Source: an uncultured Alphaproteobacteria bacterium (GTDB taxonomy: Bacteria > Pseudomonadota > Alphaproteobacteria > RF32 > CAG-239). Taken from it: 64,000 nt of DNA. The notes beneath the pieces were generated by a model. The model was not told the origin of the DNA and searched no databases. It was given only the letters and a program-made list of their open reading frames with translations. The position numbers were made by a program, and so were the translations under genes. Every line of letters starts with the position of its first letter. Positions within the stretch are counted from its first letter, which is position 1. The stretch spans positions 137,840 to 201,839 of the forward strand of contig CAJTMA010000001.1 in the NCBI GenBank assembly GCA_910577205.1, read 5' to 3'. Below, piece after piece: positions 903 to 63,115 of this stretch.

Positions 903-1526
903 ATGAAAAAATCAATTTGGACTGCCGCTCTGGCTCTGATTTTATTGGCTGCCGCCCCGCTTAAGGCTCAGCAAAAAGAAAATCTGAAACAGATTGAAGA
1001 TTATCTGAACAACATTAAAACCATGCAGGCGGCTTTTGTGCAAACCGCCAGCAACGGCAATACCGCAGAGGGAATGCTCTATATTGCCAAACCCAATAAA
1101 ATCCGTATGGAATATAATCCGCCGGCGGATGTTCAGATTATCGGCGACGGTGATTATATCGTTTATTATGACAAAGAGCTCGACCAAGTTACCAATATTG
1201 ATTATGACGATATTCCGGCCAGCCTGATTTTGGCTAATGATGTTAAGCTGGACGGCAAAAAATTCAAAGTCAGCAATTACTATCATGATGCCGGCATTAC
1301 CACTGTCACCATCCAATATAAAGACAAAGGCGACATTGGCCCGATTACCTTAACTTTTAACAACAATCCGTTTGAACTCAAGCAGTGGAGCATTGTTGAC
1401 CCGCAAAGCGTGGAAGTGACGGTTTCTTTATATAACGCGCAAAAAGACATTGATTTGGACAAGTCGCTGTTTAAGTTCAAAAAAGCCAAGTCCGGACCGA
1501 AAAGCTATAACAAAGGGCGGCGCTGA
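903..1526 (+). CDS. lolA: Outer-membrane lipoprotein carrier protein LolA family.
   Basis: Signal peptide. LolA-like AAFVQ...G.lY...P.K.RmEY..P...ii.DG..v.yYD..L.QVT pattern. ~200 aa. Confidence 0.7.
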   Translation: MKKSIWTAALALILLAAAPLKAQQKENLKQIEDYLNNIKTMQAAFVQTASNGNTAEGMLYIAKPNKIRMEYNPPADVQIIGDGDYIVYYDKELDQVTNIDYDDIPASLILANDVKLDGKKFKVSNYYHDAGITTVTIQYKDKGDIGPITLTFNNNPFELKQWSIVDPQSVEVTVSLYNAQKDIDLDKSLFKFKKAKSGPKSYNKGRR

Positions 1527-1529
1527 TAA

Positions 1530-2342
1530 ATGGATGGCACGACTTTTAAGCTGGCGAGCTGGAACGTCAACTCTATTCGTATTCGTTTAGATTTGCTGAA
1601 AAAACTGATTGAGAGTGAAAATCCTGACATCATTTGTATTCAGGAAGTAAAAGCCAAAGAAGAAGATTTTCCTTTTGAGGAAATTGAGGCGATGGGGTAT
1701 CCGCATATCGCCCTGTACGGAATGCCCGGCTATAACGGCGTGGCGATTTTATCCAAAACCCGCTTGAACGCCGTCGACCGCAAGGACTGGGTCGGCAAAA
1801 GCGATGCTCGGCACATTACGGCGCAAATTTTTGACGATTTGGAAATTAATAATATTTATATTCCGGCAGGCGGGGACATTCCCGATCCGATAGTCAATCT
1901 TTCTTTTGCACATAAATTAACCTTTATGGATGATATTGCCGAATATTGGGAACAGCATAAAGATGATTACGGCCAGCGGAAACTGATTGTCTGCGGCGAT
2001 TTCAATGTTGCTCCGCGAGAGCATGATGTTTGGAATCACAAGCAGATGTTAAAAATCGTTTCCCACACGCCGGTTGAGATTGAACGGCTGACAAGATTGC
2101 AGCTCTCGCTGGACTTTGTAGATGTTTTGCGCCATTTTTATCCCGAACCGCAGAAATTATATTCCTGGTGGAGCTATCGAAATCCTAATTGGCAAACGAA
2201 TGACAAAGGGCGGCGGCTGGATCATATCTGGGTTTCGCCTAATATTGCAGACAGAATTGTCAGCGCCAAAATCTGCCGCTTCATGCGTGCGGAGCAACGT
2301 CCGTCTGACCATGTGCCGGTGGTTGTTGAAATTAAAAAATAA
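1530..2342 (+). CDS. xthA: Exodeoxyribonuclease III (AP endonuclease).
   Basis: LASWNVNSIR...ICIQE...GDFNV...SDH pattern characteristic of ExoIII/APE. 270 aa. Confidence 0.9.
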   Translation: MDGTTFKLASWNVNSIRIRLDLLKKLIESENPDIICIQEVKAKEEDFPFEEIEAMGYPHIALYGMPGYNGVAILSKTRLNAVDRKDWVGKSDARHITAQIFDDLEINNIYIPAGGDIPDPIVNLSFAHKLTFMDDIAEYWEQHKDDYGQRKLIVCGDFNVAPREHDVWNHKQMLKIVSHTPVEIERLTRLQLSLDFVDVLRHFYPEPQKLYSWWSYRNPNWQTNDKGRRLDHIWVSPNIADRIVSAKICRFMRAEQRPSDHVPVVVEIKK

Positions 2343-2420
2343 ACTAATATTTTAATAGGCATTGACGAGAACATAAACCCGTTTTACACTCAACGCAGAT
2401 TTAACCTTGAGGCCAGTCCA

Positions 2421-3548
2421 ATGAAATTTAAACTTTTTGCCTTATCCGCTTTGGCTTTGTTATGGCCTGTCCATACGCAGGCAGCTGATGCCGAATTTGT
2501 TTACAGCGGACGGGTTGATTCCCTTTATAGCTATAATATGCCGGACAGCCGGTATAAGCATAATGACCACCGCGACCATTGGGTTAATATTTTCTCTCTT
2601 AACCTTGGGATAGAAAAAGAATTTGCCGATGATTACCAGTTGGGGTTATATGCCGATTTTAACGCCGGTATCAACAAACGGCAGGATAATTTTAATAACG
2701 GCGACTGGGGACAGGAAGTCTACGGGATTATGGACAGCCCGTATGGCCGGATTATGCTTGGCGAAACCTACAACGTAGCCTATCAGTTTCAGGTTGGCGC
2801 GCCGCGCGTCGGGGCAATCGGGCTGAATGATTCCGACATTGTCAATTTCATGGCGAATCCCAACTGGGTGAAGACAAAGCACGAAACGGCCTACCGGACG
2901 CTAAATTCAACCTCGATGAATACTGACGGTGTCGCGCCGAAAATCAGTTATATCACGCCGGAAATCTATCGCACCAGTTTCGGGGTCAGTTTTACGCCCG
3001 ACACCTATGACCGGCGGGGACTAGTAAATAAGTTTGCCAAATATGCCGATGATACGGCTTATGTTTTCTCGCTCTACAGTGAACAGGATTTGGGGTTTGC
3101 CGATATGTCGGCCGCTTTGGGTTATGGTATTTTTAACCAAGATGACAAAGAATTTACGGCCGGGTTAAGCTTTTATAAGGGTGGCTGGACACTGGGTGCA
3201 AGCTACCGCAAGACTTATGTTGACGGCGGAGATTATAAAATTACACAGCAAAGCCTGAATCCTCGCCTGCCGGATTTGTTTGACAATTACCGCGAAGGAC
3301 AGGCTTGGGATGTTGGTTTGAAGTATGAAATCGGGCCGTTTCAAACCGCATTGTCATATTTGCACAGCGAGGCCAAGGACAGCCGCAACAAAGATGATAT
3401 TATTCTTCTTTCTAACCAATATCAGCTGAACAAATATGTTGACCTTTACCTTGTCGGCGCACAGGTTAATTTCCGCGGCGCAGACCGAACAATTGCCGAG
3501 AACAACAAAGGATACACTGTTGTTGCCGGTGTCGGCCTCCATTTTTAG
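2421..3548 (+). CDS. Outer-membrane beta-barrel protein, porin-like.
   Basis: Signal peptide ending AQA. Alternating amphipathic strands. C-terminal ...VVAGVGLHF with terminal Phe. Confidence 0.6.
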   Translation: MKFKLFALSALALLWPVHTQAADAEFVYSGRVDSLYSYNMPDSRYKHNDHRDHWVNIFSLNLGIEKEFADDYQLGLYADFNAGINKRQDNFNNGDWGQEVYGIMDSPYGRIMLGETYNVAYQFQVGAPRVGAIGLNDSDIVNFMANPNWVKTKHETAYRTLNSTSMNTDGVAPKISYITPEIYRTSFGVSFTPDTYDRRGLVNKFAKYADDTAYVFSLYSEQDLGFADMSAALGYGIFNQDDKEFTAGLSFYKGGWTLGASYRKTYVDGGDYKITQQSLNPRLPDLFDNYREGQAWDVGLKYEIGPFQTALSYLHSEAKDSRNKDDIILLSNQYQLNKYVDLYLVGAQVNFRGADRTIAENNKGYTVVAGVGLHF

Positions 3549-3553
3549 GGAAT

Positions 3554-4183
3554 ATGATTATGCCTGACGTTTTACTGCTTTCTGACAATCAGGGATTTGC
3601 CGATGACCTCGCCGGCCAAATCAGTTTATACACCCCGGAGTTCTCCGTTTACCGGCAAGATGGTGATAACCGGAATTTTGACGTCTATATTTTGGATGAA
3701 AAAAGCCCTTTGGCGGGTAAATTGCGCCAGGAGCACCATAAAGCGCCGATACTCTTACTGGAAAAAGCCGACAGTTCCGCAGATTTTGACCCGGAAATGA
3801 CTGTTTACAAGCCATTCAGCCTGAATGTCTTTTTAAATTTGCTGCGCTCTTGCATCAACCGTTTTGAAAACAGCAGCGACGGCTATTTGCGATTTAACAG
3901 TTATGAACTTCATCCGGCGGCAAAAGAAATTGTTAATTTGCAGAATGGCGAAACCGTCAAACTGACGGAAAAGGAAGTGGCGGTTATTAAATATTTATAC
4001 AAAGCCAAAGACAGAATCGTTTCAAAAAATGACTTGTTACACGATGTTTGGGATTATAATGCCGATGTGACAACACATACGATTGAAACGCATATCTATC
4101 GCCTGCGGCAGAAAGTTGAACATGACAATGCCGAAACGCCGCTGATTATGACCGAAGACGGCGGTTACAGACTTAAATTTTAG
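3554..4183 (+). CDS. OmpR/PhoB-type winged-helix transcriptional regulator with an atypical receiver-like N-terminus.
   Basis: C-terminal trans_reg_C-like segment (THTIETHIYRLRQKVE...GGYRL). N-terminus has D/D/K positions but a degenerate receiver. Confidence 0.55.
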   Translation: MIMPDVLLLSDNQGFADDLAGQISLYTPEFSVYRQDGDNRNFDVYILDEKSPLAGKLRQEHHKAPILLLEKADSSADFDPEMTVYKPFSLNVFLNLLRSCINRFENSSDGYLRFNSYELHPAAKEIVNLQNGETVKLTEKEVAVIKYLYKAKDRIVSKNDLLHDVWDYNADVTTHTIETHIYRLRQKVEHDNAETPLIMTEDGGYRLKF

Positions 4184-4186
4184 GAT

Positions 4187-5461
4187 TTACCGGGAATTTC
4201 CGCCGGGACGCGGGCGCGGTTTTGAACGCGGCTTAGACCGGGGTTTAGCCGGCTGGTTTGCCTGTATGGCTTTTTCCAAACGCTGTTTGGTTTGCGCGTC
4301 AATATTTTTCAAAAATGCCGGGGTTATTGACGGAGCGCCTTTGGTTTTCATTCGCGGCTGGGCTTCAAGACAGGCAATTAAAAGGCGGGCGCGGAATTCA
4401 TCATCTTCAATAGAGGCAAATTCAATCTGGCTGTTATCTTTTGCGGCCTTGGCAACCACATCGGCGAAATCCTTAACGCTCGGAATATCGTCTGTTCCGT
4501 CATCACGAACAACGCCCATGGATAAATTGTATTCGTTGTTGGCTTCCAGATTGAGCTTAGAACCGTCTGCACGAGTAATATCTGCCACAAAATTCGGATT
4601 TTTGGCATCTTCATGATATACAGCCTTATCCCTTGCCGCCACGGCCTGATAATGTTTGCGCCAGCCGTCTTTCCAATTGTCGTTGTTATGCGGCAGAACC
4701 GGCAGGGCATTATCATGCGACACGGCAACAGCTTTGACCAAGCCCGGCATATTTTCCAAAGTTGCGCGCATTGAAGCAATACACTCGTCACAAAACGGCG
4801 GCTGATTTTTCTTTTTGCGCTCCAGCCGCTCTTGTGTCAACCCGATATAACCGCTTTCGCCCATAATACATTTGTCATTGGTGCAGTGTGTGCCCAAATC
4901 CGCGTCATAATGCGTATTGCCCCTTTTGTCATGCGTGGCATTGAGAATATGCCCGAATTCATGCATAAAAATAGTGATAAATAATTCCTTATCATTACAG
5001 GTCTGGGTGGAGAGAACAGCATTAAGCTTTTCAATCCCGTAGCCATAAAAAGACGGTTCTAATTTCTCATTGAGAAGCGTCACAACCAAATCCTGCGAAC
5101 CAGTACGCATCATGTTTTCGGCTTTCAGCTGGCCGTATTTAGCCATATCAACGCCGTTTATGCCTTTTTTGCGATTTTCTGCGGAAGCGGCAAGCAGGTA
5201 CCACTGCTCGGAAGCATAAGGCACAAGATATTTGCCGTTGGGCAGTTTGATAAATTTTTGTTTATAGCCATCGTTCGGCAGGGAAACATATTCATTGACA
5301 TCAATTTCCGATTTATTCTGCGGGCGGCAGTCGCTGAACTCCGCCTTAAATGAGGATTTATATTCAGGAAACAGCGCCAGCATTTCCTCCGCGGCTTCTT
5401 TCGCCCAGAGCTTATATTTCGGATGAGTGCCTGCCGGTGTTTCTATGATTATTTTTTTCAT
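4187..5461 (-). CDS. Archaemetzincin-like zinc metallopeptidase with a ~200-aa C-terminal extension and basic KPRSKPRSKPRPRP tail.
   Basis: HEFGHILNATH (HExxHxxxxxH), then CTNDKCIM (Cx4CxM), then CDEC about 25 aa later. Start overlaps the upstream gene stop (ATGA). Confidence 0.6.
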   Translation of the reverse strand: MKKIIIETPAGTHPKYKLWAKEAAEEMLALFPEYKSSFKAEFSDCRPQNKSEIDVNEYVSLPNDGYKQKFIKLPNGKYLVPYASEQWYLLAASAENRKKGINGVDMAKYGQLKAENMMRTGSQDLVVTLLNEKLEPSFYGYGIEKLNAVLSTQTCNDKELFITIFMHEFGHILNATHDKRGNTHYDADLGTHCTNDKCIMGESGYIGLTQERLERKKKNQPPFCDECIASMRATLENMPGLVKAVAVSHDNALPVLPHNNDNWKDGWRKHYQAVAARDKAVYHEDAKNPNFVADITRADGSKLNLEANNEYNLSMGVVRDDGTDDIPSVKDFADVVAKAAKDNSQIEFASIEDDEFRARLLIACLEAQPRMKTKGAPSITPAFLKNIDAQTKQRLEKAIQANQPAKPRSKPRSKPRPRPGGNSR

Positions 5462-7368
5462 TTGTCTTTTCCTTTGGCGCGCAGCATTTTAAGCAGCGTC
5501 TTTTCTACCGGACGTTCAATCTGACATTTGTGTTTCATTTCTTCGGCATAGCGTTCGCCGATACGCGTTGAGGGGCGTTTGAAATCATTCAGTTTAAAAA
5601 TTTCGCAAACCAAATTGCCTGACACCATACGGCGGCGGCGATTGTCAAAGATGTCACCCAGTTTTCCGGCCTCATAATCAATTTCATCAGGATTTCTGCC
5701 ATCCTGCCGCAACCGCCGGCGGAGGGTTTCCGTTACCCGGCCTTCCGTTTCTTTGGAGGCATCAAACAGCTTAAAGGTATTCTGCCGCTGGCGCTGAATT
5801 AAAATATTATTGGCATCAAAGAAGTAGTCCTGCGCCTGAACATGGCTGAAATAGGCTTCAAAACCTTTGCGGTTAAATCCGGTTTCAGCAGAATTTGTCA
5901 GCTCGGCAAATAATGCAATCTGTTTGAACCAATCAGTTTTGTGATCACCGCATTGTTGTTCAAAATCACGGCTTTTCAGAATATTAGCGCTCTTTTTATC
6001 GCACCAGTAAAGCAAATCGACCATTGGCGGGGTTATGCCAATTTTTTGGGCTTCTATGCCGTCTATCAGCTTGTTATTCAAAACCGACAGAAATTCCCCA
6101 AACTGACGGGTGTCGTTTGTGTTGTCCATTGCCAATTGCCGCGACAAATTGTCTAGTTCTTTATCACCGGTCCGCGGCGCATGATTATTGCTCTTTTGCA
6201 TATTTTCCGCAATGGTTTGTATCAGGCCGGCAGCCGTTTCGCCGGTATCCTGATTAACAATCGTTTCGTATCGGCTGATATCCAGGTAGGCCGGCAAGAA
6301 ATCTTCAGATTGAACATTTTTCAAATCCCCGGCAATCAATGCGGCATTTTCATCGGCTGACGGCTTATCCCCTGACTTAGCGGCCTGATAGTAGTTAAGC
6401 ATATGTCCGACAAGCTCGCTGACACCGATGGTTTCACTGTGTATCATGTCCCTCAAACCGTTAAACTCCGCAACCTCAAGCTCTATCGCTTTGGTACGCA
6501 GAAGCTCCCGTTTGGTCATATCTGGTGTCGGAACTTCCTTCAAAATGCCCAAAGCCTCATTAAAACGGCGCGGCGACCATTCCGATGTGAGAATTTTATT
6601 ATTGTACCCTATCAGCCCATATTCGCCGAAAGCACAATCATGTTCGGCGGAAAGCGTGTTAAAATCAGGCGTTTTATTAATCATCGGAATGACATATTTT
6701 TCAAAACCTTCGGCCATCTCCGGCGTTAAATTGCCCTCATTGAGATAAGTCATGTCAATTTCTTCACAGACTTTAACGAGGGTTTGGGGGTCATCCAACT
6801 TTTGTATTGCCTTATTCACCATCCCCAAGCGGTTAAAATAGGCAGAGGGATTGTCTTGATAAAGCGAGCTAAAAACCTGCAATGCCAGCGGAAACTTGTC
6901 TTTCAGCCCCAGCCCGTTATCCGGAGAGGTTATTCTTTCAGCCGTAATCGCCATAAATTTATGCAAACTATCATCATTCAGACGCTCCGGCGCATAAGTC
7001 ACCATTGCTTTGGCAGACATTGCAAAAATTGCCCGACATAAGGCTTCATCTTTGGGTGTTTCAGTGTTAGGCATAACACGGTCTGCAAAAATCTCTGAAT
7101 AGCCGACTAACTCAGCCAGCTGTTGCGGCTCTAAGCGGTTAATTTCACAAAAGCGGCTGTTCCAATTGCGTGTGACCGCGCCCTCTTTTATTTCAGGGTC
7201 GAAATAACTGTCCATACCCAAATTATAAGCGATTTCAGCCATATTTTTGGCCGCAGAAGCTGCCGCTCCGGCACTTATTCCGGGATGTTGCCGTTTCATC
7301 TCCTCTATGGCTTCTTTGGCCGGAGCTGTTCTTATAAAAACGGCATATAATTCATCAAAATCGCTCAT
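5458..7368 (-). CDS. Hypothetical protein, 636 aa. No motifs I recognise. Translationally coupled to the metzincin gene.
   Basis: Long uninterrupted ORF. 4-nt overlap with the downstream gene. Confidence 0.65.
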   Translation of the reverse strand: MSDFDELYAVFIRTAPAKEAIEEMKRQHPGISAGAAASAAKNMAEIAYNLGMDSYFDPEIKEGAVTRNWNSRFCEINRLEPQQLAELVGYSEIFADRVMPNTETPKDEALCRAIFAMSAKAMVTYAPERLNDDSLHKFMAITAERITSPDNGLGLKDKFPLALQVFSSLYQDNPSAYFNRLGMVNKAIQKLDDPQTLVKVCEEIDMTYLNEGNLTPEMAEGFEKYVIPMINKTPDFNTLSAEHDCAFGEYGLIGYNNKILTSEWSPRRFNEALGILKEVPTPDMTKRELLRTKAIELEVAEFNGLRDMIHSETIGVSELVGHMLNYYQAAKSGDKPSADENAALIAGDLKNVQSEDFLPAYLDISRYETIVNQDTGETAAGLIQTIAENMQKSNNHAPRTGDKELDNLSRQLAMDNTNDTRQFGEFLSVLNNKLIDGIEAQKIGITPPMVDLLYWCDKKSANILKSRDFEQQCGDHKTDWFKQIALFAELTNSAETGFNRKGFEAYFSHVQAQDYFFDANNILIQRQRQNTFKLFDASKETEGRVTETLRRRLRQDGRNPDEIDYEAGKLGDIFDNRRRRMVSGNLVCEIFKLNDFKRPSTRIGERYAEEMKHKCQIERPVEKTLLKMLRAKGKDK

Positions 7369-7529
7369 CTGCAGTTCCTTAAACTTTCTTTGCTTTAATG
7401 TAACATAATATGAAAATTTTGTCTAGAATCAAAATACCCCGGAAAGGGTTAAAAAATTGTGTAAAAATCCGCTCCATACGTTGATATCTTTAAATTATCG
7501 CTTGGTGATTATGAAATTCTGCTATATGA

Positions 7530-10010
<2,481 letters not shown>

Positions 10011-39915: not shown

Positions 39916-39934
39916 TAAAATTCTTCTTAAAAAA

Positions 39935-40025
39935 GGTGGAGGACGAATGACCTTAACCGCTTTCGTTACGGCTGCTTCCTTCCGGACCTGACCGGGTTGG
40001 CGAAGAGTTAACCCACCATCCTCCA
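39935..40025 (-). ncRNA. ffs: Signal recognition particle RNA (4.5S RNA).
   Basis: Minus strand contains GGUCAGGUCCGGAAGGAAGCAGCC (conserved domain IV). 5' ggaggatgg pairs with 3' cgtcctcc. Followed by TTTTTT. Classic position upstream of dnaX. Confidence 0.85.
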
Positions 40026-40127
40026 TAAATGTGATTTTCAGCCTTAAACGCCGGAAATCCTGACGGGATTAATATCGTTCATATCCGGCGATTTTTCAAG
40101 GAAAAAATCAATAATTAACACCTGAGC

Positions 40128-49227: not shown

Positions 49228-49395
49228 AAAATTTTAATAGCCTTTGGTAAAGATATAGTTACTCCAAAACATAATTCTTTTAGTCTACTCCTTTTAGCCA
49301 TAAAAAAAAGCAACCCTTATTGAGTATTGACAAATATAGATAGCTATGGTACATTGAGAACAGGCTTTGATTCAGTTATATTTGTGAGGTGTATT

Positions 49396-50316
49396 ATGAA
49401 AATAATCAGCAAACCTTATCAATTGTCTTTGGCATTCTCCTTAGTTCTGCCTCTGACAATTTTTGCATTTTTATCTTCGGCATATGCCTTCCTCGTAGAT
49501 ACAAGCCAAAACCAAGCCTTTGAATCACGGCCTCAGGCCGCCGCAAATTCAAAGCGGCCTGTTTCTTTTCCTGCTTTTAAATTAGCTTCCGTCAATTTTA
49601 TTACCGGTGGCGGAAACCTTGTTTTTTCAGCGCCAGACTTTACGGATAAATCCGTTGAAACCTGTAAATCTCTTGGATTTAATAAGACTTCCTGTGCTTC
49701 CGGCGTGCCGGGAAACACCTGCCCTTACAACTCTTCTTATTTTTCTCAATGCTGCGATGAACGTTACAAATACTCAAAATCCAAATGCGTTTATCCGAAT
49801 ACTATCAGCGGTGATTCCTGCGGCGGTAAATATATGTGCTACTGTGACCGCAGTTTATACAAAGTGACGGCTTCTTCTTGCAAAGCACCGTTAGTTCCGG
49901 CTTCCGGCAGCGGCAACAGCTGTGTTGAAGACGGCGTGATTTACTATTCTTCCTGTGTTTGTCCGGCAACTTATACGCAAGTTTGCAACGGAAATAATAT
50001 GGAAGGCACGGGCCAAGGTTGCACCATCGGCGGAATAACCAAATATATATCTTGCCAATGCAAAGCCGGATACAATCTGACCTGCGCCAATTCTACCCCG
50101 GAAAATGCATCTGATTATTGCCTGAAAGACGGCATTAAATATTACAGCCGCTGCAAGACCTGCCCTAATGCCTGCAAGTTGAACAGCTGCCCGGCAGGCG
50201 TGAGCTGCAGCAAAGAGGAATGCTCGGGAAAATATTGTGCCAATAGCTGTTCAACCGGATATGTGGATTTAGAAAATTACTGGTGTAACGGCGCTTTGAA
50301 GTGTTTGCTCCGCTGA
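49396..50316 (+). CDS. Secreted Cys-rich repeat protein. Paralog of 10369 and 50447.
   Basis: Signal peptide. Repeated C..DG..YYS.C.C modules. The 5' leader is near-identical to that of gene 10369. Confidence 0.6.
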   Translation: MKIISKPYQLSLAFSLVLPLTIFAFLSSAYAFLVDTSQNQAFESRPQAAANSKRPVSFPAFKLASVNFITGGGNLVFSAPDFTDKSVETCKSLGFNKTSCASGVPGNTCPYNSSYFSQCCDERYKYSKSKCVYPNTISGDSCGGKYMCYCDRSLYKVTASSCKAPLVPASGSGNSCVEDGVIYYSSCVCPATYTQVCNGNNMEGTGQGCTIGGITKYISCQCKAGYNLTCANSTPENASDYCLKDGIKYYSRCKTCPNACKLNSCPAGVSCSKEECSGKYCANSCSTGYVDLENYWCNGALKCLLR

Positions 50317-50446: not shown

Positions 50447-51466
50447 ATGATGAATAAAATATGTAGTTTAAATTTGGGGACGGCTTTGCTGGTTTCGTCG
50501 GTATTCTCTCCGGCTCAAATTGTTCTGGCACAGAGCTGCACTATTCCGCCGACCTGTGAAAGTTTGGGATATGACAAGAATCCCAGTGATTGTGTTGACA
50601 AAGCCATTTTGAAATGCCCGCTAGATAAAACCAAAATTTTTTGCTCTAACGGCGTGGCCGACGGTGTTGCTCCTGATGACGGAAATAATCCTCTTATGGT
50701 TGGTTCTATCGCTTATTCTGACGGATCATGGTCGACTAAACCTAAGTCTGACAAAATACCTATCGGCGTTATATTTGATATATCCGGTTTAGCTGTTGCT
50801 TTAGACAATTATACATTGGTAAACTACTCTTGTTCCAATCCATGCCAAAGTTTTACGCCAACAGTATGTTCCGGATATTCTGCGGGAGGACTTAATTTAT
50901 GGAAAAATCCGACTTTGCAGCAATTGCAATTAATGTATGATAAAAAAACCAAATTGGACAGTGTTCTTTCTGCTCTTTCAGCCAGACCTTTGGCTTCTTC
51001 AAAATTGGTTTATGGCACAGATGGGAGTCGAGTGGCCTATCTTGAATTTGATAAGGGGACTATTGGCACATCATTTACAGAAACACCTATTCGCTGCGTT
51101 ATTGACATCTCATCCATTAACGCAGCACCTCCCCCAACCACTCCTTACAAAGTTGGGGATACCTATTATAAAAACGGAATAGCTTGCGGCAAAATTGCAA
51201 AACTTGACAGCACCGGGAAACACGGAACAGTAATTACTTCCGGTGCTTATGTGGGAACACAAAGCGAAACATCTAATTACTGCATCAACAAATCGACCTG
51301 CGGACTAGACTGGGGTATCGCTTCGCCGGAAAGTATAAAAAACACAGTGGACTTCTGTAGCTATTTTTACACATCAGCGGGGTGCTGCCACCTTTGCGGC
51401 GGTCAATCCAATAGAGTTTGCGGAATTAGTGGTTGCACAAGCGGGTACTGTGAAGCTTCTTTTTAA
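50447..51466 (+). CDS. Secreted Cys-rich protein with a DUF1566-like segment. Paralog of 10369 and 49396.
   Basis: CTIPPTCESLGYD...KCPLD N-terminal motif matches gene 10369. IGSIAYSDG...PIGVIFD...LAVAL block is shared. WKNPT..QL..MY ... IRCV follows. Confidence 0.6.
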   Translation: MMNKICSLNLGTALLVSSVFSPAQIVLAQSCTIPPTCESLGYDKNPSDCVDKAILKCPLDKTKIFCSNGVADGVAPDDGNNPLMVGSIAYSDGSWSTKPKSDKIPIGVIFDISGLAVALDNYTLVNYSCSNPCQSFTPTVCSGYSAGGLNLWKNPTLQQLQLMYDKKTKLDSVLSALSARPLASSKLVYGTDGSRVAYLEFDKGTIGTSFTETPIRCVIDISSINAAPPPTTPYKVGDTYYKNGIACGKIAKLDSTGKHGTVITSGAYVGTQSETSNYCINKSTCGLDWGIASPESIKNTVDFCSYFYTSAGCCHLCGGQSNRVCGISGCTSGYCEASF

Positions 51467-52664: not shown

Positions 52665-53437
52665 GCCAGCAATTCCTTCTCTCTTTTCAGAACTTCTCCG
52701 GTCAGGCTGATGTAGGCCTGTGATCCGGGACATTTAAAATCATATATCAATACAGGTTTGCCATGTGAGGGGGCTTCTGAAATACGAACATTCCGCGGAA
52801 TGACCGTTTGGTATACTTTTTTACCAAAGAAGCTGCGCACATCGTCTTCAACCATCTGTGTCAGGTTATTACGCTTGTCGTACATTGTCAGCACAACACC
52901 CTGTAATTCAAGTTTGGGATTAAATTTCTTTTTAATCTGGTTGATGTTGCGAATTAAATCGGTAATGCCTTCCAATGCCAGAAACTCACATTGCAAGGGA
53001 ACAATGACAGCGTCCGCAGCAACCAGGGCGTTAATAGTCACCAAGCTTAATGACGGCGGACAATCAATTAAGATATAGTCATAATTAACGGCATCACGAT
53101 ACAAGGCTTTTTTCAACGCAAATTCGCGATTGGCAATTTCAACCAATTCAACTTCTGCTCCCGCCAAATCAGGGGAAGAGGGAATCAAAGAAAAGTTAGG
53201 GATGTCTGTCCAGACAACAGCTTCAGAAATTCTTTTGTCACCCAAAAGCACTTCGTAAGAAGAAGCCATCCGCCCGCTTTTGTTAACGCCCATTGAGGTG
53301 GTGGCATTTCCCTGCGGGTCTAAATCGACAACCAAAACTTTTTTGCCGGTGGCAGCCATAGCTGTCGCAACATTTACCGTTGTCGTGGTTTTTCCGACTC
53401 CGCCTTTTCGGTTGGCAATGGCAATAATTCTTGGCAT
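52658..53437 (-). CDS. parA: Chromosome partitioning ATPase ParA.
   Basis: KGGVGKTT deviant Walker A. 259 aa. Confidence 0.95.
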   Translation of the reverse strand: MPRIIAIANRKGGVGKTTTTVNVATAMAATGKKVLVVDLDPQGNATTSMGVNKSGRMASSYEVLLGDKRISEAVVWTDIPNFSLIPSSPDLAGAEVELVEIANREFALKKALYRDAVNYDYILIDCPPSLSLVTINALVAADAVIVPLQCEFLALEGITDLIRNINQIKKKFNPKLELQGVVLTMYDKRNNLTQMVEDDVRSFFGKKVYQTVIPRNVRISEAPSHGKPVLIYDFKCPGSQAYISLTGEVLKREKELLAC

Positions 53438-54063
53438 TATTTAACTCCCTTAAGTTTGCTTAGATTATTGATTAACAAAATGACACCCTCATCGCTATAT
53501 TCGCTGGGCATGGCTTGACAGTCAAATTTCCAGTGCTTGCGTGCTTCGGCGATTTCTTCTGCATATTTTTTGCCTTTAGGAAATATACAAAGCGTTTTTT
53601 TACCGCAGAACGGAAATGCATAACCGAGCAGCCCATCCAAAGCAGTCATCGCTCTTGAGGTAATAACATCAGCTTTTTGACGAGGCAGATTTTCGATTCG
53701 CTCATTCAAAACCTCGACGTTTGCACCTGTCAATTCAGCGACGTGTTTTAAATACAGTGTTTTCTTCTTTATACTTTCTATAAGGTTCACTTTTAAATAC
53801 GGTGTTTTTTCTTTAGCCATTATAGCAAGAACCATTCCCGGAAAGCCAGCGCCAGAGCCAAAGTCATAAAGGGTTTGCGCGTCTTGGGGGATATATCTAA
53901 ACAGCTGCATCGAGTCTAAAAAATGCCGATTCCAGCTATCTTCCAATGACGCAGAGCTAACCAGATTAAACTTATTTTGCCACTCGCGCAGAGAGGCTTC
54001 ATAAGCTTTTAAATGCTCAATTGTTTCACGTGAAACACTATATTTTTCTGCAATATTTTTCAT
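53437..54063 (-). CDS. rsmG: 16S rRNA m7G527 methyltransferase RsmG (GidB).
   Basis: DFGSGAGFPG SAM motif. Sits between parA and mnmG as in canonical loci. Confidence 0.93.
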   Translation of the reverse strand: MKNIAEKYSVSRETIEHLKAYEASLREWQNKFNLVSSASLEDSWNRHFLDSMQLFRYIPQDAQTLYDFGSGAGFPGMVLAIMAKEKTPYLKVNLIESIKKKTLYLKHVAELTGANVEVLNERIENLPRQKADVITSRAMTALDGLLGYAFPFCGKKTLCIFPKGKKYAEEIAEARKHWKFDCQAMPSEYSDEGVILLINNLSKLKGVK

Positions 54064-54236
54064 ATGATTTTTATATAATTTTTATATTAAATTTAAAACC
54101 CTAAAAACAGAGTTATAAACACCTTATTATCAATTTTTAAAATTTATTTTAAATACAAACAATTAAACATCAATCTTGACTCAGAATATCAAGATTTTAT
54201 CAACATTTAAATACACTGTTTGGGTAGTATAAAGTT

Positions 54237-54854
54237 CTATTTGATGATTTGCAGAAATTGGTAGGTATCACACTGGCATTTGTTGTCGATGGTCGTCTTC
54301 AGATAAGTTACGATTTGTCGCAGAGAGTATTCTTGTTGCGCCGAGAGTTGATAACGCGAAGTAATGCCTTCAATGCGTTGCTCAGGTGTCACGCAACTTA
54401 GGCCTTCAAAAAACATATCGGCATATTGGATAATTAAATCATAGTCACTATAGATAAGCGGTTTTAACAAGCTGCGACATTCATCAAGCCAGTGGTCCGG
54501 ATAGGAATAATCTTCATTTGAAAAATCTTTGTTAACAAAAGTATGCGTCAGGCAGATTTGAGCAACGTCGGTATACCCCTGCGACAACATATCCCGGTAG
54601 CCAAGGATACCGTGAAAACAATCTTGCTGCCTTTCATCTTGGCGCTTACCATGATCATGCAGCAGACCCAAAACATAAGCTTTTTCCTCGTTCAATGACA
54701 TCTTTTGGGCGAGTAATTCACTTAATTTGGCAACACCTTGCGTATGGAAAATATACTCCTTGTCAATTTGCGGTGATTTGACGTGGTGGGCGCGGGAATA
54801 ATCTATTCCCTGCTGCCAGATTATTTCAGCGTCATATCGATTGGGATAAGACAT
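54237..54854 (-). CDS. HD-domain phosphohydrolase family protein, paralog 1 of 3.
   Basis: H...LGLLHDHGK...FHG...LTH...YAD pattern. C-terminal KCQCDTYQFL motif is shared by all three. Confidence 0.65.
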   Translation of the reverse strand: MSYPNRYDAEIIWQQGIDYSRAHHVKSPQIDKEYIFHTQGVAKLSELLAQKMSLNEEKAYVLGLLHDHGKRQDERQQDCFHGILGYRDMLSQGYTDVAQICLTHTFVNKDFSNEDYSYPDHWLDECRSLLKPLIYSDYDLIIQYADMFFEGLSCVTPEQRIEGITSRYQLSAQQEYSLRQIVTYLKTTIDNKCQCDTYQFLQIIK

Positions 54855-55474
54855 TAATGAATTCCTAAAAGGGTATAGATATCACAGCCGCATTTTTCAT
54901 CAAAATATTGCTTAAGCTTTTCAGCGGCGTTCATATGTGCTTGTAAAAAATCTTCCTGAAAAGGGTATCTTTGAGCCAATGACTGGCAACGATAACTTAA
55001 TGTGCAGCTTTTTCCCCGGTCATTCAACATATCCGCTAACTGGAGCAATTTGTCATAATTATCATAATCAAGCTGAGAGATTATTTGTTTGCAGCGCAAA
55101 AGGTCTTGATGTGCCTGAGGATATAAATCCGGATTAAAATCTTTATTCAAGAAGCAGTGGGTGAGGGATATCCGGGCAATTTCATTCCAACCTTGAGACT
55201 TCATCAACTCATAGCCTGTCCAGCCATGGAAGACATTTTCGCTTTTTTCGTCTTTGATACGCCCGCAATCATGAAGCAAACCTGAAAGATATGCGCGTTC
55301 AGGGTTTAAATACGCTGTTTTTGCAGCTATTGTCGAGGCAATTTCAGCAACAGTTCGGCTATGAGCACGAAACTCTTTTTCCCATTGCGGCAAAAAAGGG
55401 CAGGGACTGTTATTACGGCTGGTTATTACATATTCAAGAAAAGCTTCGGCTTCTTGTCTGGTTGGCAATGGCAT
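54854..55474 (-). CDS. HD-domain phosphohydrolase family protein, paralog 2 of 3.
   Basis: LSGLLHDCGR...FHG...LTH...LAD...KCGCDIYTLL. Start taken at MPLPTRQ (GGGAG RBS), immediately after the stop of paralog 3. Confidence 0.6.
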   Translation of the reverse strand: MPLPTRQEAEAFLEYVITSRNNSPCPFLPQWEKEFRAHSRTVAEIASTIAAKTAYLNPERAYLSGLLHDCGRIKDEKSENVFHGWTGYELMKSQGWNEIARISLTHCFLNKDFNPDLYPQAHQDLLRCKQIISQLDYDNYDKLLQLADMLNDRGKSCTLSYRCQSLAQRYPFQEDFLQAHMNAAEKLKQYFDEKCGCDIYTLLGIH

Positions 55475-55475
55475 T

Positions 55476-56099
55476 TCAGGCAACTCCCAAAAGCTTGTAG
55501 ATATCGCAACCGCATTTGTCATCAAAATACTTTTTTAACAGCAAAGCTTCGCGGTATTTTTTCTTTACCAAAGCGACAGGCAGTCGGTAAGTATTTTGAA
55601 TAAACTTCATACGCTCTTTAATATTATATGTTACGCCGACAGACAAGCGGTCACAAAGTTGAATCAGGCGATCATAGTCGTCAAATGGCAGCTTGTTTAG
55701 TAACTGTTTGCAATGGCGCATTTCCCAAGGATTATAGGAAGCATATTCTCTTAAATTTAATTCCTGCTGATAAAAAGTGTGGGTCAGGTTAATTCTGGCA
55801 AGTTCATCATAGCCTAAATTTTTGAGGAATTTATATCCCTCCAAGCCGTGAAATTTATCGGAAACTTCATCGTTATACACTAATTTTCCGAAGTCATGAA
55901 ACAAGCCCATCAAATAAGCTTTCTGCCCATCAATTTCCGGCAGCCGTGATGCAATAATTTCAGCGCAGACAGCAACCATTGCCGAATGAATCCTTTGCCC
56001 TTTTGCCCGGCCATATTTGAAACGGGATGATTCCTCGCAGCGCTTATCTAACGTTTCTTCATAAAGCTTTAGAGCTTCTTTCATGCTTGGCATTGTCAT
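55476..56099 (-). CDS. HD-domain phosphohydrolase family protein, paralog 3 of 3.
   Basis: LMGLFHDFGK...FHG...LTH...LCD...KCGCDIYKLL. Confidence 0.65.
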   Translation of the reverse strand: MTMPSMKEALKLYEETLDKRCEESSRFKYGRAKGQRIHSAMVAVCAEIIASRLPEIDGQKAYLMGLFHDFGKLVYNDEVSDKFHGLEGYKFLKNLGYDELARINLTHTFYQQELNLREYASYNPWEMRHCKQLLNKLPFDDYDRLIQLCDRLSVGVTYNIKERMKFIQNTYRLPVALVKKKYREALLLKKYFDDKCGCDIYKLLGVA

Positions 56100-56102
56100 G
56101 GG

Positions 56103-57956
56103 TCACCTCTTAACAAATCCCAAAATAGCAGTTATTGCCGCCGGCGTTACCCCGGGTATGCGGGAAGCTTCACCAACGGTCGACGGGCGGACTTTAGACA
56201 GTTTTTGCACCATCTCACGCGATAAGCCGCCAATTTGGCTGTAATCAATGTCTTCCCTAATTTTTAAGTTTTCATCTTTATGGAACACGTCAATATCTGC
56301 TTGCTGGCGCTTCAGATAGCCGGCATATTTTGCTTCAATTTCGATTGCTTCGTAAACATCGTCCGGCATAGAAGATAATTCTGGCCAAAGCTGATTGATT
56401 GTTTCACGTGAAACAGTGTCATAAGACATGAGGTTAAAAGCAGTGCGTTTAGTGCCGTCATGTTTGGTTTTGATACCGGCTTCATCAAGACGGTTTTGTT
56501 TGGCAAACAACTCTTCACAAAGGCTGCGGTAATGTTTAATCTTGTCATATTTTTCTTTAAATACAGTGTATCTATCATTCCCGACACAACCAATTTGCCA
56601 GCCTTTTTCCGTCAGGCGGGCATCGGCATTGTCTGCGCGGAGCAACAAACGATATTCCGAGCGGGAAGTAAACATCCGGTAAGGCTCATCCACGCCTTTG
56701 GTAATTAAATCGTCTATCATAACACCAATGTAGGCTTCGCTGCGGTCTATGGTGAATTCACGGCCTTTGCCTTCAGCAAACAAGGCCGCATTGACACCGG
56801 CAACCAAGCCTTGGGCGGCAGCTTCTTCATAACCTGTCGTACCGTTTATCTGCCCTGCCAGATATAATCCCGGAACTTTTTTAACTGCCAGTGTCCGATT
56901 CAGCTCCTGCGGGTCAACATAATCGTATTCGATAGCGTAGGCATAACGCAGGATTTCAACATCTTCTAATCCGGCAATGGTATGAATAAACTGCTCTTGT
57001 ACATCAGCGGGCAGGGAGGTCGAAATGCCGTTAGGGTAAACAACATCTGTTGTCAGACCTTCGGGTTCAAGAAAAATCTGGTGGCTGGTGCGATCAGCAA
57101 ACTTGACTAGCTTATCTTCAATACTGGGGCAGTAACGCGGCCCGACACCTTTAATCAGCCCGGAGAAAAGCGCACATTTGGAAAAATTATCGCGGATAAT
57201 CTGGTGCGTTTTTTCATTGGTGTGAGTTATATAACACTGAATTTGCGGATTAGTAATTTCTTTAGTTAAATAAGAAAAAGGCTGGGGCGGAAAATCTCCG
57301 TCTTGGGCATCAAGCTTATCCCAATGGATAGTTTTGCCGTTTAAGCGAGCAGGCGTTCCGGTTTTCAAACGCCCGACAGTCAAACCACGCTGTTTTAAAT
57401 ACGGTGTTATACCTGAACAACTGACATCATCTATACGACCGCCGACAGTTGTTTCATGTCCGACAAACATCACACCATTTAAGAAAGTACCGGAGGTCAG
57501 GATAACGGCTTTGGCTTGGATTTCTGTTCCGTCCGCAAGAATTACGCCGCTCGCCTTGTCGCCCTCAAAAAGCAATCCCTCGGCTGCCGCCTCAATAATA
57601 TCCAGGTTTGGCTGCGCCTGCAATGCTTCAAGCATAAATTTTTTATAAAGTTCTCTGTCTGCCTGAGCACGCGGTCCTCTGACAGCAGGGCCTTTAGATT
57701 GGTTTAGCATACGAAACTGTATACCGCCTTTGTCAATGACCCGTCCCATAAGACCGTCCAGAGCATCTATTTCGCGCACCAAATGCCCTTTGCCTAATCC
57801 GCCGATAGCGGGATTGCAAGACATAGCGCCTATGGTTTCAATTTTATGAGTAATTAACGCGGTTTTTGCACCGGTTCTGGCCGCCGCGGCACAGGCTTCA
57901 CATCCTGCATGGCCGCCGCCAATGACAACAACATCATAGTTTCTATTTTCAGTCAT
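56103..57956 (-). CDS. mnmG: tRNA uridine 5-carboxymethylaminomethyl modification enzyme MnmG (GidA).
   Basis: FAD-binding [12 protein letters not shown] and the conserved MnmG core. 617 aa. Confidence 0.96.
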
Positions 57957-58095: not shown

Positions 58096-58587
58096 TTAAA
58101 TGACACATTCCTTACGGAGGTTGCGGAGGTAATCATAAACTTCGGCACGCTGTAAAAGTGTCGGACAAATACTGAAAATAGACAAGACATATACCGCAGC
58201 GACATGAGCAGAATAAGATTTATCATCTTCCAGCAGCTTAATAGCCGTATGCATGAAGTTAGAAAGACTAGTCAGCAATTGGTTAACAAAAGCATCGTTT
58301 TCACTATTCAGATGAAGATAAAAAAGATTATTTTCATATTCATCAAACTTTTCAAAAAGATTTTTGAAGCAGTAAATCATGCCTGTCAGAGCCGGCCGAT
58401 AAGTTTCATTAACATCCGAAAAATCGCCGCTTGATGCTATGGCATAACCACAGAGGACAGAGATATTACGACCGATTAAACACTGCAAACTGTCATTGTT
58501 GGGATTAAAGTTTCTGTTCATAAAAATAAATTTTAAGTTAATAATAAATTTATAGTGTTTTTTTAGTCCATTTCTGCAAAAAGTCAA
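58096..58587 (-). CDS. Hypothetical protein, AT-rich, inserted between mnmE and mnmG.
   Basis: ORF of 163 aa (or ~141 aa from MNRNF). No motif I recognise. Own terminator. Confidence 0.5.
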   Translation of the reverse strand: MTFCRNGLKKHYKFIINLKFIFMNRNFNPNNDSLQCLIGRNISVLCGYAIASSGDFSDVNETYRPALTGMIYCFKNLFEKFDEYENNLFYLHLNSENDAFVNQLLTSLSNFMHTAIKLLEDDKSYSAHVAAVYVLSIFSICPTLLQRAEVYDYLRNLRKECVI

Positions 58588-58590
58588 GTT

Positions 58591-59934
58591 TTATTTGCCA
58601 ATACAGAACGACCCAAAGATTTTATCCAGGATATCGTCTACTTCAATCCGTCCGGTAATTTTGCCTAATCCGCGGGCTGCCAGACGAATATCTTCCGCTG
58701 CCAATTCTATCTCTTTATCCAGACTAAATTGCCGCAAAGTTTCCAGGGTTTCCTGTAGAGCTTCGCGATAACGGGCACGGGTAATCAACACATCAGAATT
58801 TGCGGTAAATTTGTTTTCTATCTGCTTGGTTATTTCGGCCAGAAGCATATCTAATCCCTGGCGTTGCTTTGCAGCAATAATCAGGCAGTTCCGGCACCTC
58901 AATTCATCAATCTGTTCAGCTGACAGCTTATCGGCTTTATTAGCGACAAGCAGCATTTTGTCAGATATTGTTTTTCGCAGATTATCAAAGAGGTGAACAG
59001 TGTCCTGTGATGCATCAAACAAACATATTACCAAATCTGCTTCTGCAATTTTATGGTAGGCTATTTCAATGCCGCGTTTTTCAATGGCATCTTCAACTTC
59101 ACGCAGCCCGGCCGTATCAGTAAACATGACCGGATAGCCTTTTAAATCGAGGTGAACGTCAACCGCGTCACGGGTTGTTCCGGCAATGTTAGACACGATT
59201 GCCGCTTCCCGGTTTACTACAGCGTTCAGCAAACTTGATTTGCCGGCATTCGGCGGTCCGACAATAACAACCCGAAACCCTTCGCGCAGGCGTTCGCCGA
59301 TTTTATCGCCGGATAAATGGGCTGAAATAGCCTCACAAAGTTTAAATACATTGTTTTCAAGTTTAAATACAGTGTCCTGAGGAATATTTTCATCCGGGAA
59401 ATCAATATAAGCTTCAAGATGAGCCATCACAGTCAATAATTCGTCACGCCAACTTTCATACAGATTTTTTAATCCGCCCTCCATTTGGCGCATGGCATAT
59501 TTCTGTTGCTCGGCTGTTTCGGCGTCAATTAAGTCAGCCAGCCCTTCTGCTTGGGTCAAATCCATTTTGCCGTTATAGAATGCGCGTTTGGAAAACTCAC
59601 CGGGTTCTGCCAGACGAAACCCAGGAATTTGCGCCAATGAAGAAATGACTCCGGAAATTACGGCTCTGGAACCGTGAATCTGAAATTCGACAATATCTTC
59701 CCCCGTAAAAGAAAAAGGTGCCTTAAAATAAAGCAAAAGGCATTTATCAAGCAACTGACGTTCCGGAACAGAATACAAGTTTGCAAAATAAGCATAACGG
59801 GGTTTTAAGCGGCCGATATCAATGTCTGTCATTCGGCAAATCGTTTCGCGCGCTTCAGCGCCGGAAACGCGAATAACCGCTACTCCGGATTTTCCCATTA
59901 CCGTCGATAAAGCATAAATGGTTTGATTATCCAT
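58591..59934 (-). CDS. mnmE: tRNA modification GTPase MnmE (TrmE).
   Basis: G-domain GPPNAGKSSLLN, DTAG, NKAD. C-terminal CIGK. 447 aa. Confidence 0.96.
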   Translation of the reverse strand: MDNQTIYALSTVMGKSGVAVIRVSGAEARETICRMTDIDIGRLKPRYAYFANLYSVPERQLLDKCLLLYFKAPFSFTGEDIVEFQIHGSRAVISGVISSLAQIPGFRLAEPGEFSKRAFYNGKMDLTQAEGLADLIDAETAEQQKYAMRQMEGGLKNLYESWRDELLTVMAHLEAYIDFPDENIPQDTVFKLENNVFKLCEAISAHLSGDKIGERLREGFRVVIVGPPNAGKSSLLNAVVNREAAIVSNIAGTTRDAVDVHLDLKGYPVMFTDTAGLREVEDAIEKRGIEIAYHKIAEADLVICLFDASQDTVHLFDNLRKTISDKMLLVANKADKLSAEQIDELRCRNCLIIAAKQRQGLDMLLAEITKQIENKFTANSDVLITRARYREALQETLETLRQFSLDKEIELAAEDIRLAARGLGKITGRIEVDDILDKIFGSFCIGK

Positions 59935-62602: not shown

Positions 62603-63115
62603 GTGAACCTGATCTGATTATAAAAAATGAAGTGAATGGTTGAAAGGGTAAAAAGATGAACTATATGTTCATGGCATAAGCTTTATATATGATTTAAATT
62701 ATAAAGTGTCAAACAAAGAATAGAGATTTTTTCATGGCAGTTTTATGCACATCTTCCCTGCCCATATAATATTTTTTTAAAAGTTAGTAGTAGATTGTAT
62801 ATGCCTGTGACTGATGTGGATAAGTTCTTTAACACAAAGTTATGCAGAGCAGGCGGGGATGTTTATAAGATTGTGGGGGAAAGTTAACCCTTTCTTAACG
62901 AATCGTTAAAAATTTATTAACACAAAATGTAAACCTAAAAATTGCCCGTTTGTGCGTAACTTTTTTATCCCCAGATTTGGGATAAAATATGAGCTTGTGC
63001 GTAAGTGGGTATATTAGATTTTACTTTATGGTGATTAATCTGTATAAACTTAGTAAACAGCGGAGTTATGCACAGAAAAGGGCACTTCTGTTGATAACTG
63101 CCTTAAGCCTTTGAT
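62603..63115. promoter_or_regulatory. AT-rich intergenic region with a perfect DnaA box, DnaA-like boxes and two tandem CtrA boxes. Candidate chromosomal replication origin and/or CtrA-regulated promoter region.
   Basis: TGTGGATAA at 62815-62823. TTATCCCCA at 62965-62973. TGTTGATAA at 63089-63097. TTAA-N7-TTAAC at 62884-62899 and 62906-62921. Confidence 0.45.

Follow-up and report, generated by a model that had tools for sequence, protein, structure and literature searches.

The 64,000-nucleotide stretch analysed here in full (the window; contig CAJTMA010000001.1, positions 137,840 to 201,839) comes from an uncultured alphaproteobacterium of the CAG-239 lineage and carries three consecutive genes for stand-alone HD-domain proteins between mnmG and rsmG. 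All five genes are on the minus strand. Reading from mnmG (gidA; 56103-57956, Pfam GIDA E 6e-165), the first HD gene is HD_C (55476-56099, taken from the list of open reading frames (ORFs); 207 amino acids, orthogroup C, Pfam HD E 9.8e-12), the second is HD_B (54854-55474 after revision of its start; 206 amino acids, orthogroup B, E 3.5e-8), and the third is HD_A (54237-54854; 205 amino acids, orthogroup A, E 4e-8), followed by rsmG (gidB; 53437-54063, Pfam GidB E 1.2e-39). The three copies score 34.0, 34.2, and 45.6 bits against the Pfam HD gathering cut-off of 22. A hidden Markov model (HMM) built for the family finds these three copies only in the whole window, each with an E value of 1e-82 to 1e-87, and the three-gene array is real, far beyond chance. 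An earlier note, made from the sequence alone, had placed three HD paralogues of about 200 amino acids in an otherwise contiguous mnmG-rsmG block, and the profile matches bear out both the genes, at those positions, and the identity of the flanks.

The array is tightly packed. The mnmG TGA (56105-56103) is separated by a 3-nt gap from the HD_C ATG at 56099, which has AAGAGG ahead of it; the HD_C TGA (55478-55476) is separated by a 1-nt gap from the HD_B ATG at 55474, which has GGGAG ahead of it; and the HD_B stop and the HD_A start share the sequence TAATG at 54854, a 1-nt overlap. Shine-Dalgarno-like sequences are found at each of the three junctions. The close packing described in the earlier note therefore stands, except for one apparent overlap of 50 nt between HD_C and HD_B. 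As the longest ORF, HD_B covers 54854-55525 (223 amino acids) from a TTG start, and the overlap is an artefact because this TTG is spurious and the ATG at 55474 fits better. From that ATG, the N-terminus of the protein agrees with those of its orthologues, including the one in L001 (labels of this kind denote related loci). A terminator-like hairpin lies upstream of mnmG (58089-58065), and no convincing terminator was found inside the HD array, where the sole terminator-like match is a weak 5-bp hairpin within HD_A. On the simplest reading of this layout, mnmG, HD_C, HD_B, and HD_A probably form one transcription unit whose members are translationally coupled.

HD_A and rsmG are separated by a 173-nt AT-rich spacer (54064-54236, minus strand, 31% GC), recognised by its composition and by alignment with relatives. 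It forms the 3' boundary of the HD array. Aligned with five relatives, it shows long invariant blocks, including AAAC.GTGTATTTAAA, GTGTTTATAACT, and TTTTAAATTT..T.TAAAAA.TATATAAA, and it is strongly kept even in the distant L005. Rfam at gathering thresholds gave no known RNA family in or near the array, the spacer included. The spacer is probably a promoter or another regulatory site of rsmG-parAB, from which these genes are probably driven. The array as a whole is located in a core, origin-proximal housekeeping cluster, with mnmE (58591-59934) and rho on its upstream side and parA and parB on its downstream side.

The three proteins are 29-37% identical in pairwise comparison, close to the 30-40% that had been estimated by eye, and share 45 invariant columns, including H36, H65-D66, G68, H80, H103, and D145 (HD_A numbering). 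The motifs common to all three are GLxHDxG(K/R), FHG, LTH, and a C-terminal KCxCDxYxxL; the first three had already been picked out in the earlier note and fall among the invariant columns, with Lys or Arg at the last position of the first motif. Across 47 copies from 21 loci (described below), the six-residue set H..HD..H..H..D is invariant in every copy, and in most copies the residue four after the HD histidine is basic, Lys in A and C but Arg in B. The C-terminal motif, which the earlier note had singled out as unusual, does end all three proteins. The first Cys of KCxCD is at least 97% conserved in the 47 copies and both Cys are typical of the clade, but across the wider family the cysteines are variable, with just the Asp and the Tyr kept, and the C-terminal helix reads YFDxKxxxD(I/V)YxLL. 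A family-wide metal site formed by the CxC was rejected for this reason. For HD_C and HD_A, AlphaFold2 gives confident all-helical models whose elements follow one another in the same way (predicted local distance difference test scores of 96.1 and 96.8, respectively), and the top ranks of a Foldseek search against the PDB are all HD-superfamily proteins, namely the HDOD protein 3HC1, 2PQ7, PgpH, YqeK-family entries, and Ddi2. Given their profile scores, their H...HD...D ligands, and their predicted all-alpha fold, the three genes are assigned to the HD superfamily (PF01966).

Related loci were collected by scanning one genome per species, which gave 16 loci, and by looking up contigs, which gave 5 further ones. 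The 16 scanned loci are all from metagenome-assembled genomes (MAGs) of uncultured Alphaproteobacteria, mostly gut-derived; their sources include 'Candidatus Scatocola faecipullorum', a water-deer caecum MAG, and an 'uncultured Azospirillum' MAG. The mnmG-rsmG interval contains one to three HD genes in 15 of the 16 scanned loci and in 20 of all 21; the exception is L008, whose single HD copy comes directly after tuf and a NUDIX gene. In a neighbour-joining tree, the 47 copies fall into three orthogroups, A, B, and C, which stand in the order C-B-A in the window. Single-copy genomes all hold type A, two-copy genomes hold A+B, A+C, or B+C, and others hold A+B+C. Because three orthogroups are kept in varying subsets, the duplications are old and differentially retained. 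The tandem triplication proposed in the earlier note is thus no local event: ancient orthogroups occupy the same site in related species. What is new here is the insertion of one to three HD genes and a PHP gene in the mnmG-rsmG interval of uncultured, mostly gut-derived Alphaproteobacteria, with three HD orthogroups that the tree indicates to be ancient; we found no paper joining an HD domain with mnmG/rsmG or gidA/gidB in the literature.

All three HD genes are under purifying selection. Between close relatives, the ratio of nonsynonymous to synonymous substitution rates (dN/dS) is 0.03-0.05 for C, 0.09-0.11 for B, and 0.10-0.12 for A, compared with 0.03-0.04 for mnmG and 0.05-0.09 for rsmG. 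HD_C is the most conserved of the three, with 75-78% identity to the copy at position 1 of close relatives. The distal genes are more changeable. HD_B and HD_A show 74-82% nucleotide identity where the flanks show about 90-95% (L001 versus L003, L002, L014, and L016; L001 positions 7400-8600), and the synonymous substitution rate (dS) of the HD_B/HD_A region in the same close relatives reaches about three times the value for mnmG and rsmG. Furthermore, L014 and L016 lack exactly HD_A, with a clean gap of about 620 bp and flanks about 90% identical. These patterns suggest that alleles have been exchanged, or a gene recently lost, at the distal end of the array.

In nearly all relatives, a further gene stands between the last HD gene and rsmG, just upstream of the conserved spacer; it encodes a PHP protein of 266-277 amino acids. 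This protein is above the subfamily cut-off of the HisJ family in three of the four copies scanned. The window and L015 have no PHP gene, and tblastn detected no PHP remnant in the window. The distribution indicates that the insert ancestrally held a predicted PHP phosphatase of the HisJ type, which was lost from the window. In L016, the PHP gene (8618-9414) aligns as two overlapping pieces and may be frameshifted; if so, this would fit PHP decay in the subclade nearest the window, since the gene is lost in the window and L015. The order of genes also varies. In L004, the PHP gene precedes the HD genes after mnmG; in L029, an island (1468-4359) reads mnmG, NUDIX, a MurA-like gene, PHP, HD, and HD; and in L030, an island (6297-9373) reads mnmG, three HD genes, a MurA-like gene, PHP, and PHP. 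The MurA-like enolpyruvyl transferase of these islands is divergent (474 amino acids, 275 bits against the murA cut-off of 392.7). Judging from these gene orders, the mnmG-rsmG interval in more distant relatives behaves as a variable island rich in predicted phosphoesterases.

The family extends well beyond this locus. A profile search returned at least 213 clusters (at 50% identity) at E <1e-30 and 692 at E <1e-10, mostly stand-alone proteins of about 200 amino acids. The only names found on members are 'HD domain-containing protein', 'hypothetical protein', and 'putative nucleotidyltransferase with HDIG domain'. Distant members occur in Clostridia, Chitinivibrionia, Holosporaceae, and others, one of them on a conjugative-element-like contig; in the neighbourhoods examined they lie in unrelated contexts and never beside mnmG, so the mnmG linkage is lineage-specific. 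A plasmid-borne or mobile origin was rejected: only seven distant plasmid matches were found, all annotated 'HD domain-containing protein', on large non-mobilizable replicons with unrelated neighbours. Clues to the substrate come from fusions of the types NUDIX-HD, HD-NUDIX, and NT5C-HD, whose HD domains are 50-61% identical to one another. NT5C is a 5'-deoxynucleotidase. In L008, a NUDIX gene immediately precedes the HD gene, and another lies within the L029 island. The recurrent association with NUDIX, NT5C, and PHP supports nucleotides as the substrate class, without singling out one of them.

Among characterised HD proteins, the closest parallel is YqeK (TIGR00488; structures 2O08, 3CCG, 2OGI, 8WMY, and 8JJA), the symmetrical diadenosine tetraphosphate (Ap4A) hydrolase of Gram-positive bacteria. 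YqeK is likewise a stand-alone, all-helical HD protein of about 190-210 amino acids with the dinuclear H..HD..H..H..D motif, a catalytic Lys in HDxxK (shared by A and C, replaced by Arg in B), and an (F/W)HG motif around the third His, and it is the best functionally characterised match in a profile-versus-PDB sequence search (8JJA, E 4e-6). A superfamily review treats the extended six-ligand motif as the mark of a dinuclear site and gives YqeK as the phosphatase case (PMC8177086), and mutation of YqeK Lys62, equivalent to the HDxxK Lys, strongly lowers Ap4A cleavage (PMC11857287). Nevertheless, the window proteins fall outside the YqeK family. HD_A and HD_C score 17.5 and 12.5 bits against TIGR00488, whose cut-off is 70.15, and HD_B has no match; distant family members score 16-21 bits. 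The YqeK structures 8WMY, 8JJA, 2OGI, 2O08, and 3CCG are matched by Foldseek only at E 0.011-0.4, with template modelling (TM) scores of 0.31-0.43 and root-mean-square deviations of 6.5-13.5 Å, and the C-terminal YFDxKxxxD(I/V)YxLL helix is peculiar to the present family. The gene context differs as well: yqeK is located in the nadD-yqeK-rsfS operon, and the HD genes stand with mnmG, PHP, and rsmG. The HMM searches proposed in the earlier note (Pfam HD, YqeK, and YfbR) thus return HD alone, YfbR also staying below its cut-off, and orthology to YqeK or YfbR was rejected because the NCBIfam scores are far under the cut-offs.

PgpH and HD-GYP phosphodiesterases (4S1B/4S1C and 4MCW) share the dinuclear HD fold, with Foldseek E values of 0.014-0.03 and TM of about 0.4. 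Their ligand set is defined as H..HD..H..HH..D with an HH doublet (PMC8177086), unlike the window proteins, which have a single His in LTH(T/C)F, no GYP, and no seven-transmembrane or receiver domains; an HD-GYP or PgpH-type phosphodiesterase was rejected on these motifs. The best partial NCBIfam matches are HDIG, the HD halves of NadD-HD (PRK07152) and of the DVU_1551-family nucleoside triphosphate (NTP) transferase fusion (NF045665), and RNase Y. The PRK07152 and NF045665 matches, obtained with the window copies and with distant members alike at E values down to 1e-10, cover only the HD part (21-41 bits against cut-offs of 315 bits), and the window proteins have no nucleotidyltransferase domain.

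The comparisons above indicate an uncharacterised subfamily of stand-alone HD proteins of about 205 amino acids, represented here by three ancient paralogues. We favour, with moderate confidence, the reading that the three are active two-metal HD phosphohydrolases acting on small nucleotides in house-cleaning or alarmone turnover, YqeK-like in chemistry yet outside the YqeK family, co-expressed with mnmG, diverged, and partly redundant. It draws together the HD fold class, the intact ligands, the orthogroups and their synteny, purifying selection, and the fusions with and adjacency to nucleotide hydrolases, from which HD_A, HD_B, and HD_C are probably catalytically active, nucleotide-cleaving enzymes. 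On this reading, the HD genes would be transcribed with mnmG and coupled to one another in translation; each protein would bind two metal ions through H..HD..H..H..D, with the Lys four after the HD histidine (Arg in B) contacting a phosphate as in YqeK, and would hydrolyse a small nucleotide at a phosphoanhydride or phosphoester bond. Candidate substrates are dinucleoside polyphosphates, (deoxy)nucleoside tri- or diphosphates, or (deoxy)nucleoside monophosphates. The paralogues may have diverged in substrate preference while staying partly redundant, and partial redundancy together with divergence would explain why lineages keep different subsets.

Several observations weigh against this reading. 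The same six-ligand motif also occurs in HD-domain oxygenases and in some phosphodiesterases (PMC8177086), which means that sequence does not settle the chemistry. The Arg directly before the first His, present in B and C, is missing from orthogroup A (47 copies), and the mechanism may therefore differ between copies. The ligand spacing is unlike that of YqeK, with 15 residues from HD to the next H against 32, and 43 from H to D against 18. Foldseek matches to every solved HD protein are weak (E at least 0.01, TM 0.3-0.45), and the subfamily is thus without a close solved relative. With the window copies, every NCBIfam model stays below its cut-off, and they fit no curated family. Further fusion partners in the wider family, namely GNAT, SUKH-1, GDSL, and peptidase S51, give no pointer to nucleotides.

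Gene order raises another explanation, in which the HD enzymes are tied to the mnmG/rsmG pathway and act in tRNA or rRNA end processing or in the disposal of modified nucleotides of the 5-carboxymethylaminomethyluridine (cmnm5U) or 7-methylguanosine (m7G) type that RNA turnover sets free. HD_C, the most conserved copy, is coupled to mnmG by the 3-nt gap, and the placement between mnmG and rsmG is kept in all but one of the 21 related loci. The two known genes for Ap4A hydrolases, apaH and yqeK, share operons with genes for rRNA modification or ribosome assembly, and these contexts also count in favour. However, adjacency to mnmG is not obligatory: PHP comes first in L004, NUDIX, the MurA-like gene, and PHP intervene in L029, and the L008 copy follows tuf and NUDIX. 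Distant members have no linkage to mnmG, mnmE, or rsmG, no recognisable RNA-binding domain was found in the HD proteins with Pfam or NCBIfam, and rsmG seems to have its own conserved upstream region. We therefore regard a direct link to RNA modification as unlikely.

The distal divergence of the array would also be expected of a conflict module, in which anti-phage nucleotide depletion or a toxin/immunity set is caught in an arms race that drives copy-number change. HD_A is present or absent among relatives whose flanks are about 90% identical, and HD_B and HD_A reach only 74-82% nucleotide identity where flanks are near 95%, with the threefold dS noted above. Further, one distant member is fused to the immunity-type SUKH-1 domain and one lies on the conjugative-element-like contig. 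Several results speak against such a role, and they lend no support to the effector function suggested in the earlier note. PADLOC-DB gives only short generic HD-motif matches to Cas3 and Cas10 (E 7e-6 to 7e-3), noise on which assignment to a known defence system was rejected; tblastn against 50,697 phage records found no phage homologue; dN/dS of 0.03-0.12 denotes purifying selection; and the orthogroups remain stable and keep their synteny over deep evolutionary distances. The locus has no sensor, nuclease, or toxin partner, and the genes belong to a core origin-proximal housekeeping cluster. A conflict module is accordingly improbable in our view.

HDOD domains (PF08668) are usually accessory signalling modules on larger proteins, and one or more copies could be non-catalytic regulators or scaffolds of this kind, or the three could form an obligate hetero-oligomer with one active subunit. 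The HDOD protein 3HC1 is the best raw match in the profile-versus-PDB search (E 1.6e-7) and ranks first in Foldseek for HD_A, the HDOD model scores above its cut-off of 22.9 bits in B (36.5) and C (30.5), although not in A (21.8), and translational coupling would suit stoichiometric complexes. The likeness is confined to the H...GLLHDxG region: the aligned positions are about 93-146 of 196, roughly a quarter of the model, with only about 40-50 positions around H..HD covered, and the match does not extend over the full model. In contrast to what an HDOD-type reading would predict, the full catalytic ligand set is kept in every copy of every orthogroup, and an obligate heteromer is argued against because genomes retain any subset (A, A+B, A+C, or B+C). 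We give non-catalytic or heteromeric copies a very low probability. Least probable of all, and very improbable, are di-iron oxygenases of the MIOX/PhnZ/TmpB type cleaving a C-X bond, as the six-ligand dinuclear motif does occur in all known HD oxygenases (PMC8177086) but the relatives, mostly from gut samples, are presumably anaerobes in which O2 chemistry is unlikely, PhnZ ranks only 43rd among the Foldseek matches (E 1.3), the neighbouring genes include none for phosphonate or inositol pathways, and the fusion partners are hydrolases.

Two perfect parS palindromes (TGTTTCACGTGAAACA), for which about 0.01 matches would be expected by chance, bracket the HD array at 54022-54037 and 56400-56415; the first falls near the 5' end within rsmG and the second in the 3' portion of mnmG, each within V-S-R-E-T codons. 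The same pair, inside mnmG and at the rsmG start, recurs in 14 related loci, and the HD/PHP insert thus lies in what appears to be the ParB-loading (centromere) zone. The cumulative GC skew has its minimum near 60 kb and is strongly positive from about 62.5 kb, and a 513-bp gap of 33% GC (62603-63115) between rho on the minus strand and a plus-strand gene is a candidate replication origin. Beside parB, two adjacent plus-strand genes (49327-50316, 329 amino acids, and 50447-51466, 339 amino acids) encode Cys-rich proteins with signal-peptide-like N-termini. The sole Rfam match in the window is the bacterial small signal recognition particle RNA (39932-40027, minus strand, RF00169, 60.9 bits), and no tRNA gene was detected anywhere in the 64 kb. 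The AT-rich ORF between mnmE and mnmG to which the earlier note had drawn attention exists (58096-58587, minus strand), without a Pfam or NCBIfam match. Relatives have a weakly similar ORF of 125 amino acids in the corresponding place, 23-24% identical to it and likewise with CP..L.R..VY at the C-terminus; its start in the window is probably an internal ATG (MNRNF...), it is followed by the strong terminator-like hairpin at 58089-58065, and it appears to encode a fast-evolving small protein.

At present this is an annotation-level result and a starting point for enzymology, ordinary in kind and not one that would surprise a specialist. A more far-reaching version, for which we see a slim chance, is that the HD array, together with PHP in relatives, constitutes a lineage-specific module for nucleotide sanitation or alarmone turnover, installed by gut Alphaproteobacteria in the mnmG-rsmG operon region, whose paralogues, each specialised for its own substrate, either replace an absent dinucleoside polyphosphate hydrolase of the ApaH/YqeK type or clear modified nucleotides, such as nucleoside monophosphates derived from cmnm5U or m7G, that arise when RNAs modified by the neighbouring enzymes are turned over. 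Such a module would set these proteins apart as a new HD subfamily, distinct in its biochemistry and physiologically linked to RNA modification. If the substrates are dinucleoside polyphosphates or modified nucleotides, the proteins would represent a third type of such hydrolase, and the RNA-modification neighbourhood would be explained. The family, with its at least 213 clusters, has neither a curated model nor a solved structure, and a lineage in which three long-lived paralogues occupy a conserved, apparently coupled position offers a natural experiment on specificity in an orphan HD subfamily.

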